The notes under the pieces are model-generated. The model saw only the letters and a program-made list of their open reading frames with translations, ran no database searches and was not told the DNA's origin. DNA of 63,368 nt, the filler included, from Trichosphaerium sp. ATCC 40318 (Eukaryota > Protista > Tubulinea), in NCBI GenBank assembly GCA_038496445.1. It is 3 parts of 3 records of this genome, joined end to end, with 100 filler letters (N's around TTAATTAATTAA, not from the genome) between each part and the next. Parts side by side here need not be neighbours in the genome. Positions count along the whole stretch, not along the records: positions 50,129 to 63,368 come from JALMLS010000188.1; 2 more parts are not named here. The stretch is one strand, 5' to 3'. A program made the position numbers and the translations under genes. Positions 50,141-60,930 of the stretch are shown piece after piece. Position 1 is the first letter of the stretch, and each line of letters starts with the position of its first letter.

Positions 50141-50260
50141 TACGTTCCGAGCTCGGAACGTACGTTTACATACTCGTTGACCTGTTTCAGTACGTCCCGA
50201 GCTCGGAACGTACGTTTACATACACGTGACCTGTTTGGATACGTTCAAGCGCAGAACGTA
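50141..50260. repeat. Intronic palindrome array 1 (3 units, ~50 bp)
   Basis: Perfect 22-bp palindrome tacgttccgagctcggaacgta at 50141, with variants at 50191 and 50240. Confidence 0.9.
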
Positions 50261-50345
50261 TGTTTACATACATTGTTTTATATATTTAGTTGATATTTCT
50301 ATTTTAACTTGTTTATTGTTGACTATGACTAACTTTTTACACTAG

Positions 50346-58200: not shown

Positions 58201-60930
58201 AGATAGTATGAATGCTCAATCCATATTTAATACTAAATCCTACATAGGCTAAGGCAAAGAAAAAAAAAGCAGCAGAAAAAAAAAGCAAGGCTACTGAAAA
58301 AAAGCAACCAAAAAAGGGCAAAGCAAAGAAAACCACAATACGTGTAAAAAAGCGTCGGATGGAACAACAGACACAAGTTGTGAAACGGCAAAAAGTTGGG
58401 GCTAAAATTCCAAGTTTAGAGCTCAAAACAGTCAGCCAATACAATAAACGCTTACAGGTGGCCTCAAAAAAGAGAACAACACGTAAGAACTACACAGAGT
58501 AGCCCAAAAAAAAAATGTCAAATAAAATACTTTTCCTTTGTTGTTAAATAAAATTTGTTAAAGGCTTTCAATTTGTATTTTTTACCTCAGTTTAGGACTA
58601 CTTGTATACCTGTACATACATTAAAAATAAATTTTTATTACAAGAGGTACTAATGGCGCTCAGTACACCCATCTCCAAAAACTTGACATTTTGGTCAAGT
58701 ATTCGACATTTACAAATTTAGCCAAATTTCAGATCCATACCTTTGTCAAAGTGAATATGTTGGCCACAAGGATCATAAAAAGAAGCTTCCTCTATACTCA
58801 TGTTTTGCTTTAAGCTGAGTGTTACTCTAATTGGTCTAGACAAAATATCTTTTTCTATCAAAGGCAACACAGCTTTTTGGGCAAGGTTGACAAGGACTGA
58901 ACTTGGTTGGATTGTATCAGCAAGATCTCCTAAAACTTCTCTGTTGATCATGGCCAAAGTATTCCTACACAAAAAAGATGAGAAGGGGGAGCCAACGTGA
59001 CACACGAACTAATGAACGAACATGCGTTTCGATTGTCATAAGTAACTTACTCATCTTGTTTTTGAGAGTCATAGTCATTGTAGTACTTTTCTGCAGTTGC
59101 CAAAGAAGTGTTCAACAGTCTTGTTATGTCTCTGCCAAGTTGAGGAAAGTTCAAATTAGATCTTTCAGCAAATTCTCCAGCATAGAGTTTAGTTAGGGTC
59201 AGGTGTCTGACAGTGGAGCAGGTCAGGTTGGTGATGTGGGGGTTGAAGGCTTTGCCAACATATTTGATCATTTTTCCTATTGAGTTGTTGGACATTGCAG
59301 AACCATTCAAGTTGACCCAAAATTGAATGACAGGATGCTCAGCTTCAGGAATGAGCAATAGCTTTCTGTAAGAGTTGAACCAAAGAGCAACATAGGTGAA
59401 TAAGTTGGTGTCCATCTGTGTGATAAAGACAAGTTAGTACTATATAAAAAGACATGTGAGAAAGTGCGCTCGCACAGGTCAACGCGTGTAAACGGGAGGT
59501 TCGAGCTCGGGTCGCGTCCGCACATGCGTTGTACTTGTGGCGTATCGTACGAGCTCGGGCCGCGTCCACACATGCGTCGAACATGTAGCCTGTAGTGTTT
59601 GTTTGACTGTGAAAATAGAAAAAGGAGAAAAAAATGCAAATATTCAACAACAAGAAATATGATTGTTCAAAGACGGTCCGAATTCGGAACCCGAGCGACA
59701 TGCGAAACGCGTGTCGAATGCACGTACCGAAAGTGCTGAGGCATTGTTTTTCCTTGGTCTTTTTTCAATGCCCAATGTAGATTCCAATGTGTTGTTGGGT
59801 CCAAATTTGAGATCAGTTATCTTGATGTTGGCAACTATTTGTCTTCTCTGTCCACCAGAAAGCATAGCACATAGAGTGATGAGGTGTTTTTGATATCCAA
59901 AAGCTTGTTGTTTGATTTTATCATCACTATTGAAAAGACCATTGGAGCATTTGTTTGCCTTATCAATAAAAATTTCCAAGGTTTTACCAATAGTATCCAA
60001 CATGGTGAACAGATAAAGAATAAAGGTTTGGAATTCTTCTGCAACCATGCTTTTACCTTCATTGACTCTTTTGATTGGAGATATTATTTTCTTTGGTGAA
60101 GCTTTAGCAATCTTTCTTCTTTTTTTGGCAACAATCCTGCAAGTGGATATAATTTCATCTAGCTTCCTCTTGCTATTTCTCAATTTTATAGTGAATTCAC
60201 TGTTGTCAGTATCATCATCCATTTTGTCTTGGTAATTCAAAGTAAATTCATCACTGGTGCTGTTGAAACTTCTCAACATAGATTCATAGGTTTTGACAAT
60301 GGTTTTTTTGTTATACTTTAAAGCCACCAACAATTCAGCATAATGCTTCAAAAAACTAGAAATGTATTAATATTGATGAACTTGTACATTTCGAGCAATT
60401 TGGAATCGAATCGCACAAACAATACGTATGTACGAAAATGTCGCGAAAAAAAAAAACTTTTTAAAGGGGTACCCTTTTGAATAATAGTGTTGTATGGTGA
60501 CTTCTTGGCCTGCTTTCAAGGCTGCACATTTGCAAAAGTAGTAATATTGCCTTATTTTACCAATGTCCATCTTGATGTTGCCATAAGTGTTGTTTGCACT
60601 TATCTGTTTCTTATCTAATTGATCCATGTGTATCTCTCCATGAGTCTCTCCTCTAATGTTAAGGTTTGACAACATGAATTGATATACATTAGGCCAACAT
60701 TGGAAAAGAGCTTGTTCTTGCTCTGAAGAGCCTATCTTGCCTTTTTTCATATTGTACTTTCTACTGAACTCTAGGTATCTTTTGGTGATAAAGAAGTCAG
60801 GATATTTGATTGTAGAAGCAGAAGTAGGAGTAGCAAGGAATACAACAGAGTCAATGGCTGATGATTGAATAGACATAGAGTTGTCTGATGGAGAGGAGGG
60901 TATGGAATTGTCTGTTGGTGGAGTAGACAT
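55243..60930 (-). CDS. Tyrosine recombinase (651 aa, 5 exons) with C-terminal chromo-shadow-like domain and coiled coil
   Basis: Exons 60930-60473, 60355-59728, 59415-59051, 58964-58741 and 55523-55243 splice in frame (1956 nt). Motifs LSGGQRRQIV (R), IEKRP (K), STVRH (R) and LLNTSLATAEKYY (Y). Confidence 0.8.
55593..58712 (+). mobile_element. Mutator-like (MULE) DNA transposon nested in the last intron of the YR gene
   Basis: ~40-bp TIRs: taaatgtcgaatatttgacaaaaaatgtcgagttttgg at 55593 and reverse complement taaatgtcgaatacttgaccaaaatgtcaagtttttgg ending 58712. Candidate 9-bp TSD caaatttcg (55575)/caaatttag (58713), offset by 9 bp on the left. Confidence 0.85.
56130..58502 (+). CDS. MULE transposase, multi-exon; in-frame stop near the 5' end
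   Basis: WRKY/FLYWCH-like YFKCPNRKICKARV...HNEAC; catalytic LYMDSIHKV (D), IMADCELNI (D), HHCRFHV (CxxH) and RTNNTSEGNN (E); Lys-rich tail. Confidence 0.85.
59495..59692. repeat. Intronic palindrome array 5 in YR intron 2
   Basis: cgagctcggg at ~59502 and ~59550; related ccgaattcgg at ~59677. Confidence 0.75.

Follow-up and report, generated by a model that had tools for sequence, protein, structure and literature searches.

Interleaved dyads and CpG footprints in a recombinase-type element of Trichosphaerium: probable protein-binding sites with a possible role in anti-silencing

Introduction

Why should the introns of a protist transposable element carry regularly spaced palindromes, and what keeps these sequences rich in CpG when the surrounding exons have almost none? 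The question is raised by a stretch of 63,368 nucleotides (nt) from Trichosphaerium sp. ATCC 40318 (assembly GCA_038496445.1), here termed the window, which assembly linkers (N44-TTAATTAATTAA-N44) at 27442-27541 and at 50029-50128 divide into three contigs. Its DNA is eukaryotic, with about 36% GC and short GT-AG introns. The last contig (JALMLS010000188.1) harbors a transposable element with a tyrosine-recombinase-like gene, a second gene on the opposite strand (gene 1) and a nested Mutator-like element (MULE). An initial annotation had described arrays of a palindrome in five introns of these two genes and had interpreted them as selected binding sites for a dimeric protein, either a ParB-like product or the recombinase. 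Having re-analyzed the locus, we regard the arrays, together with single copies located elsewhere in the element, as very probable selected protein-binding sites, judging from their pattern of conservation, and we consider the chances that their function is anti-silencing to be about even.

Results

The repeat unit comprises two alternating dyads

The 16-mer GTTCCGAGCTCGGAAC (palindrome A) has 15 matches with up to three mismatches in the window, all of them within 50144-59690, against an expectation of 0.03 and with none of 100 shuffles reaching 15. Additional cores are either degenerate (59498 and 59546) or gapped (50243). Core-to-core spacing is 48-50 bp in twelve successive intervals, and Tandem Repeats Finder also detects arrays 1, 3 and 4 with a period of 49-50. 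The five arrays with a period of about 49 bp reported previously are hence real, but array 5 is irregular, with spacings of 48 and 129, cores with 3-5 mismatches and no exact CCGAGCTCGG. Array 1 lies at the contig edge, with no donor site in view. The reported absence of arrays from the first 50 kb and from the nested MULE also holds, since no core with up to four mismatches is found in the former and none with up to three in the latter, which presents one chance-level match with four mismatches. The first 50 kb cannot, however, be taken as flanks of the element, because the window is made of three separate contigs joined by linkers. Palindrome A is restricted to the arrays, and only partial half-sites occur elsewhere.

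Counting outward from the core centre on both sides, we obtained a column profile from 36 half-units. The majority base accounts for 64-92% in columns 1-9 (half of A), for 33-47% in columns 10-16 and again for 78-86% in columns 17-19, which read ACA and played no part in core detection. Identity between different arrays, computed on 34 half-units after leaving out the gapped core, is 0.74 for the half A, 0.30 for the linker and 0.74 for the ACA columns, and comparison of opposite sides gives 0.74, 0.30 and 0.75. The unit is therefore composed of palindrome A (18 bp), seven variable bases, a second dyad that we term B (ACAYRC-N5-GYRTGT, 17 bp) and seven further variable bases, adding up to 49 bp. 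Array alignment thus upholds the earlier view that core and spacing are kept while spacers diverge as far as A (0.74) and the linkers (0.30) are concerned, but the spacer itself holds a conserved dyad at a fixed distance of seven bases on both sides. With up to one mismatch, B (N5) has nine matches, all in element introns and none in the first 50 kb; when N4 is also admitted, a single match appears in 50 kb of host DNA.

The arrays terminate in B, not in a half A, and B is also the centre about which the unit is quasi-symmetric. Left and right linkers are not complementary (0.19-0.21), which argues for a duplex binding geometry and against a hairpin or a terminal repeat. Linkers are more alike within arrays (0.49) than between them (0.30). 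Furthermore, an array 1 spacer recurs as its reverse complement at 50853-50885, with a score of 24 where 500 shuffles reached 18 at best. The flanking sequences of arrays 4 and 5 can likewise be matched in opposite orientation only (24 versus 8). The arrays thus appear to exchange units in either orientation.

CpG dinucleotides survive beside the sites

CpG counts in the element refer to 9155 nt, the intron that contains the MULE being excluded. Introns of the element were modelled from GT-AG ends and open frames, RNA-based introns being available only in the nested MULE. The exons of the element have a CpG observed/expected ratio (o/e) of 0.11 and a TpG/CpA o/e of 1.47, and the 1.55 kb of upstream non-coding DNA shows a CpG o/e of 0.10. 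The corresponding values are 0.58 for the MULE and 0.88 and 0.81 for the host contigs. The element introns, in contrast to its exons, reach 1.67, and 180 of the 184 CpGs in the element fall in 15 patches that occupy 1850 of the 9155 nt. Six of these patches are arrays and nine are short introns or exon positions. Dyad B, which the initial annotation had overlooked, is common to all of them: with N4 or N5 and up to two mismatches it is present in 15 of 15 patches, as opposed to 5 of 149 overlapping CpG-rich host windows.

The survival of CpG follows proximity to the sites and not intron status, because the o/e drops with distance while introns lacking a site are CpG-poor. Taking the nearest of 50 sites as reference, the o/e is 1.62 inside the site, 2.02 at 1-10 bp and 1.57 at 11-20 bp, and then falls to 0.71 at 21-30 bp, 0.13 at 31-40 bp, 0.18 at 41-60 bp, 0.0 at 61-100 bp and 0.02 beyond. 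The two introns without a good dyad (best match with three or four mismatches) contain one and zero CpGs, and the portions of the array introns that lie outside the arrays contain four in 426 nt. When the motif positions are masked, 75 CpGs are left, with an o/e of 1.82.

An additional hint comes from sequencing run X2, in which gene 1 is represented by five contigs, each 151-161 nt long, that show 19 differences from the window. Among the nine differences listed, seven lie in arrays, and five of these seven are CpG in X2 and TpG or CpA in the window, the reverse being observed in none; the two listed in exons do not involve CpG. This fits arrays that were long protected and are now decaying in a copy with a broken gene 1.

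Single sites occur in further introns and in coding sequence

The motif is not limited to the five introns to which it had been assigned, as single copies are present in six further modelled introns and at three exon positions (Table 1). The notion that intronic placement leaves coding sequence undisturbed holds for the arrays; single sites, on the other hand, lie in coding sequence at 53496, 55006-55062 and 55452. Outside the arrays, nothing in the window scores higher than the first of these with a matrix trained on array half-units alone (18.8 bits, versus 13.4 for the best host match). Applied to the nine non-array patches, the same matrix yields a sum of 60 bits as compared with 18 +/- 10, a value that none of 200 shuffles attained. 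The patch in the last gene 1 exon is an internal repeat with a short direct repeat flanking it.

Table 1. Coordinates of sites, arrays and genes in the element contig and of the adjoining linker (window positions)
Feature	Position	Strand	Description
Assembly linker N44-TTAATTAATTAA-N44	50029..50128		element contig begins at 50129; left end of the element and start of gene 1 missing
Gene 1	50346..55118	+	11 modelled exons; 5' end missing
Array 1	50143..50260	+	cores 50144, 50194 and degenerate 50243; presumed intron, donor off contig
Array 2	50718..50950	+	five cores; spacer 50853-50885 repeats an array 1 spacer in inverted form
Single exact B dyad	51347..51363		77-nt intron; CpG patch
Single B dyad, 2 mismatches	51765..51781		partial A half-sites 7 nt off on both sides; CpG patch
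Array 3	52389..52580	+	four cores alternating with four exact B dyads (52391, 52440, 52489, 52538)
Single B dyad, N4, 1 mismatch	53234..53249		82-nt intron; CpG patch
Exonic A half-site and intronic B dyad spanning donor site	53496..53526	+	
Single B dyad, N4, 2 mismatches	53701..53716		73-nt intron; small CpG patch
Array 4	54336..54500	+	three cores; B-type dyads between cores and at both ends
CpG patch in last gene 1 exon	54994..55072	+	B dyad 55006, half-unit 55042
Tyrosine-recombinase-like gene	55243..60930	-	five exons, GT-AG introns, 651 codons without stop
CpG patch in last recombinase exon	55440..55479	-	B dyad 55452 (N4, 1 mismatch)
Nested MULE-like element	55576..58729	+	in recombinase intron 4; imperfect terminal inverted repeats
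Single B dyad	59020..59036		recombinase intron 3; CpG patch
Array 5	59465..59727	-	recombinase intron 2; cores 59498, 59546, 59675; B dyads 59522, 59570, 59698
Single B dyad	60415..60431		recombinase intron 1; CpG patch
Two B dyads 25 bp apart	61204..61244		about 275 bp upstream of recombinase start; no CpG patch (exception)

The recombinase gene

All 24 arginine codons of the recombinase gene are AGA or AGG and none is CGN, and its product has no excess of cysteine (1.5%) or tryptophan (0.8%). Together with the open frame, this indicates that CpG was not lost in one burst of decay, and the codon pattern can be read as the outcome of a long CpG loss under purifying selection. Candidate catalytic residues Arg, Lys, Arg and Tyr were identified by eye in recombinase order near residues 323, 351, 432 and 473-474, and both His positions of the catalytic set (R-H-R-Y) look replaced, also by eye. 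Exon 3 scored 0.94-0.96 in the atlas, with six clusters carrying Phage_integrase on about 10% of members (recognition 2873), and the recombinase exons gave no Pfam match. No reverse transcriptase was seen on the element contig. Two sequencing runs matched small shares of the window, with no RNA run among those listed, and none joins exons of gene 1 or of the recombinase. Run X1 spans only the MULE, of which it contains a spliced transcript, almost identical in sequence, that has eight GT-AG joints as well as an unusual AG..TC joint at 57552-57596.

Three minor observations concern the same gene. Its last exon (55243-55523, minus strand), beyond the MULE, encodes a stretch that we take by eye to be chromo-shadow-like and that has no Pfam match, followed by a coiled-coil-like tail. 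Between the two parts of array 5, in recombinase intron 2, a pyrimidine tract followed by AG (59590-59625) resembles a second acceptor and is possibly a cryptic site or a nested intron. Upstream of the gene, the 1.55 kb at 60950-62500 are non-coding, AT-rich (about 23% GC), G-skewed and CpG-free.

Gene 1 and the ParB assignment

In the present copy, gene 1 is interrupted by two in-frame stops as well as by what looks like a single frameshift near exon 6. Comparison by eye with reference ParB proteins reveals stretches in ParB order, namely a DGAHC motif followed later by LNEDQ and by a helix-turn-helix (HTH)-like segment, and in the atlas the ParB-like exon ranked 17, with a score of 0.86 and ParB_N on 10% of members. 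These by-eye motifs and this one lead are what favors the parS/ParB assignment of the initial annotation, which family, profile, atlas and fold tests did not otherwise support. A ParB profile built from nine reference proteins, to the exclusion of a further set of 120 ParB proteins that came almost entirely from Streptomyces, gave a probability of at most 0.5% against single gene 1 exons; such profile tests are insensitive, because a similarly small profile of five recombinase sequences likewise missed the recombinase. Folds of single exons were of low confidence (predicted local distance difference test, pLDDT, 48.6 and 45.7 for two exons), and the low-confidence model of the ParB-like exon had its best Z score, 4.5, to unrelated folds. 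No ParA-type ATPase was found among the frames scanned on this contig, which is cut at 50129, and no methyltransferase family was detected on single exons with Pfam, PHROGs, PADLOC and NCBIfam, these exons being short and the 5' end of gene 1 missing. The core also departs from the parS consensus given in that annotation, its centre spanning 6 bp and that of the consensus 4 bp.

Searches for relatives

Among proteins, recombinase exon 3 had 113 candidate relatives, none at E<=1, exon 2 had none at E<=0.001 against 1.84 billion representatives, and the ParB-like exon had 44 candidates, none at E<=10. In viral contigs, six pattern matches to recombinase exon 3 gave no confirmed case, and DNA patterns gave 0, 0 and 0 matches. 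Searches with tblastn in plasmids and phages returned nothing better than E 2-6, those against PDB sequences only chance or repeat-protein matches, and Rfam no match. Family scans yielded nothing above cut-off with Pfam (19 and 10 frames), PHROGs (10), PADLOC or NCBIfam (8 each). Two DNA-pattern matches were discarded: a lone metagenome match, in bacterial-looking coding DNA, and one in prokaryote genomes, which corresponds to an unrelated GC-rich Streptomyces repeat. A search of open-access papers, covering their main texts, found no report of such a design in a recombinase element.

Discussion

A possible anti-silencing footprint

The locus displays an A-N7-B-N7 unit with alternating conserved and variable columns, CpG-free exons in an open gene, and CpG only beside the sites. 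It seems reasonable to postulate that a dimeric protein made by the element occupies B, with A acting as a higher-order or second site, and that the bound protein denies a host CpG methyltransferase access to about 25 bp of DNA to its left and right. In that case the patches would keep the element switchable, leaving transcription or excision possible, and the exons would tolerate methylation. Under this proposal, the loss of CpG elsewhere would stem from methylation and deamination during long purifying selection, and the patches would be due to the bound protein, not to recent insertion. An amoebozoan is known to methylate CpG in its repeats (PMC12344493). The product of gene 1, HTH-like and ParB-like by eye, is the candidate binder, and the decay of the arrays in the present copy may have begun once gene 1 broke. 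The arrays themselves would spread and be homogenized by conversion between introns, in either orientation.

The most specific form of this proposal is a bacterial ParB-type clamp turned into a sequence-specific anti-silencing factor in a protist recombinase transposon. The clamp would load at two interleaved dyads present in almost all introns and also in coding sequence, would keep only windows of about 50-100 bp free of methylation and would allow an element with exons fully adapted to permanent methylation to remain active. We advance it tentatively and consider it rather doubtful. If true, the CpG pattern would be a fossil protein footprint legible from a single sequence. Sequence-specific anti-silencing has been well shown for plant VANDAL elements only, so a similar design in a protist recombinase element would point to its repeated independent origin. 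ParB-like transposon cargo, so far merely proposed to bind its own element, would gain concrete target sites, and a sharp CpG footprint would offer a simple sequence-only screen for such systems where methylome data are absent.

Several points weigh against the proposal. The analysis is based on one copy of the element plus the short X2 contigs, each X2 observation comes from a single contig at a depth of about 3, and only 9 of the 19 differences are listed. In the host, too, introns exceed exons in CpG o/e (1.43 versus 0.97, from five introns read by eye). Motif B was derived from the same patches in which it was then counted, N4 being admitted after their inspection, and the host control windows overlap and measure 90 nt each, as compared with about 58-237 nt for the patches. 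Five B matches lie outside patches, and two of them (61204 and 61229) are near-perfect and have no CpG. Taken individually, only two of the nine non-array patches are clearly below P<0.05 with the matrix, and one more stands at 0.045. VANC strips methylation along whole elements (PMC5735166), and the footprint observed here is narrow. No relative was found across protein, viral-contig, metagenome and prokaryote-genome searches, and comparison of ParB proteins with the spliced gene 1 region did not exceed shuffles (best pair, SopB, z 2.4; summed z 0.3).

Alternative explanations

The main rival retains protein binding but assigns it a mechanical job, either as synapsis or core sites of the recombinase or as a loading array of the sopC/parS kind that tethers an excised circle, CpG survival being a by-product of occupancy. 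We grant it an appreciable minority of the probability. Both a recombinase and a ParB-like gene are present, the F plasmid sopC locus is similar in having 16-bp palindromes in 43-bp repeats (PMC3177203), and the inverted spacer of array 2 and the opposite-orientation flanks of arrays 4 and 5 (24 versus 8) are expected from exchange at symmetric cores. Nevertheless, template switching or conversion likewise yields inverted spacers, and an element with crossover sites in the introns of both its genes would be scrambled. Cryptons recombine at a short terminal motif (PMC9977147). Moreover, sopC is a single compact array with near-identical spacers (0.94) beside parA and parB, whereas the sites here extend over 11 kb, through both genes and into coding sequence, no ParA-like gene was seen and ParB is unconfirmed.

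Alternatively, each patch could stem from the recent insertion of a tiny mobile unit, rich in CpG and with inverted ends (half A, B, half A), the insertions being still too young for CpG loss and A being only the junction between tandem copies. The quasi-symmetry of the unit about B, the inverted spacer, the ongoing CpG loss suggested by X2 and the internal repeat with its flanking direct repeat at 54994-55072 all lend themselves to this explanation, which we nonetheless deem unlikely. The units must be old, because linkers differ at 70% of positions between arrays, and CpG is kept nonetheless. Left and right linkers lack the complementarity of terminal inverted repeats, arrays end in B instead of half A, sites lie in frame within an open gene and across a splice donor, and 50 kb of host DNA contain no copy.

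Somewhat less probable still is that the sites are the motifs of a host transcription factor, captured by the element and kept unmethylated by that factor, with no involvement of element proteins. The two B dyads upstream of the recombinase start and the broken state of gene 1 in this copy would be in line with such a factor, but 50 kb of host DNA contain no palindrome A and, at up to one mismatch, no dyad B with N5 and a single one when N4 is admitted as well.

We attach only slight probability to effects at the RNA level or directed at exons, that is, conserved intron hairpins or a methylation guided by small RNAs from spliced RNA that would spare introns. Five of the six array stretches do fold better than shuffles (z -1.8 to -4.4), and the contrast between introns (1.67) and exons (0.11) is as expected. 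However, five non-array introns fold no better than shuffles (z +1.2 to -1.7), the lack of linker complementarity and of Rfam matches speaks against hairpins, and CpG is sparse in two introns and in the intron parts outside arrays, the non-coding DNA upstream is CpG-free, and CpGs persist at three exon positions. Finally, neutral spread of a minisatellite family through slippage and conversion would account for the greater likeness of units within arrays (linker 0.49 versus 0.30) but is scarcely credible, being contradicted by the alternation of conserved and variable columns at fixed distances, symmetrically around the core, and by the core being better conserved than any other part even though it bears CpG, the most mutable dinucleotide here; with the sharp CpG footprint at the sites, this bears out the initial view of selected sites. 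All four of these alternatives (recent micro-element insertion, a host factor, RNA structure and neutral drift) account for the data less well than either the anti-silencing proposal or the mechanical job.

Comparison with known systems

The closest functional parallel to the anti-silencing proposal is VANDAL21 of Arabidopsis, whose VANC21 protein binds tandem-repeat motifs in VANDAL introns (PMC5735166; PMC10398659). In both cases a multi-gene DNA transposon has accumulated short motifs, arranged in tandem repeats, within its introns and other non-coding parts, the repeats evolve together and there is a local escape from CG methylation, measured in VANDAL and inferred here. Differences are nonetheless substantial. 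The Trichosphaerium element is of recombinase type, with arrays in the recombinase gene and in gene 1 and none in the nested MULE, it carries two alternating dyads instead of a 9-bp asymmetric motif, it resides in a protist, and its footprint is about 25 bp wide, with CpG-free exons. Since it is not a MULE, the element is no member of the VANDAL/VANC group and would only work alike. A Pfam scan of the exons revealed no VANC-like family, a direct comparison with VANC not being made.

With sopC/SopB of the F plasmid and with parS/ParB the element shares a 16-bp palindrome at a fixed period (43 versus 49 bp) near a gene with by-eye ParB-like motifs (PMC3177203). It departs from them in its five arrays plus single intron and exon sites, its variable linkers, its second dyad and its 6-bp centre, as against 4 bp in the parS consensus given by the initial annotation, with no ParA seen and the ParB fold unconfirmed. 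Sola1-1_Ec32 of Ectocarpus is likewise a eukaryotic transposon with a ParB-like accessory gene on the opposite strand, the product of which, fused to a methyltransferase, has been proposed to bind its own element (PMC12477816). It combines a DDE transposase with a methyltransferase domain, unlike the recombinase found here and the exons scanned, which have no methyltransferase family match, and the accessible text mentions neither site arrays nor a CpG footprint. As in Cryptons, there is an intron-bearing tyrosine recombinase gene and no reverse transcriptase seen on the contig (PMC9977147; PMC13465315), but Cryptons differ with regard to the second gene, the chromo-shadow-like tail, the internal palindrome arrays and the seemingly replaced catalytic His positions, the termini being out of view here. 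The consulted part of a preprint on methyltransferase-bearing retrotransposons makes no mention of ParB (10.64898/2026.05.21.726589).

Other features of the window

Toward its right end, the element contig presents a short telomere-like TTAGGG/TTTAGGG run adjoining a small palindrome (62539-62600), which may lie near the right end of the element. Beyond the region in which CpG was counted, a small CpG cluster at 62688-62730 shows a weak half-unit match (8.6 bits), and the element may extend that far.

In the other two contigs, a large near-perfect inverted duplication occupies 27542-36441, centred near 31990, with arms of 1464, 978 and 619 nt at 100%, and may represent a real palindrome or else an amplification or assembly chimera. 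A repeated element at 30958-33079 and 38836-40038 carries doubled subterminal motifs of 17-19 bp (31063, 32882, 37087 and 39000); a 13-base word common to this subterminal motif and to the spacer of array 4 is probably due to chance. The first contig contains a cluster of leucine-rich-repeat genes with 63/66-bp units and a gene with MORN-like repeats (427-5111 and 16023-16928), both being kinds of gene that are frequent in amoebae and giant viruses, and the leucine-rich-repeat frames of this region are mildly CpG-poor (0.37-0.55).

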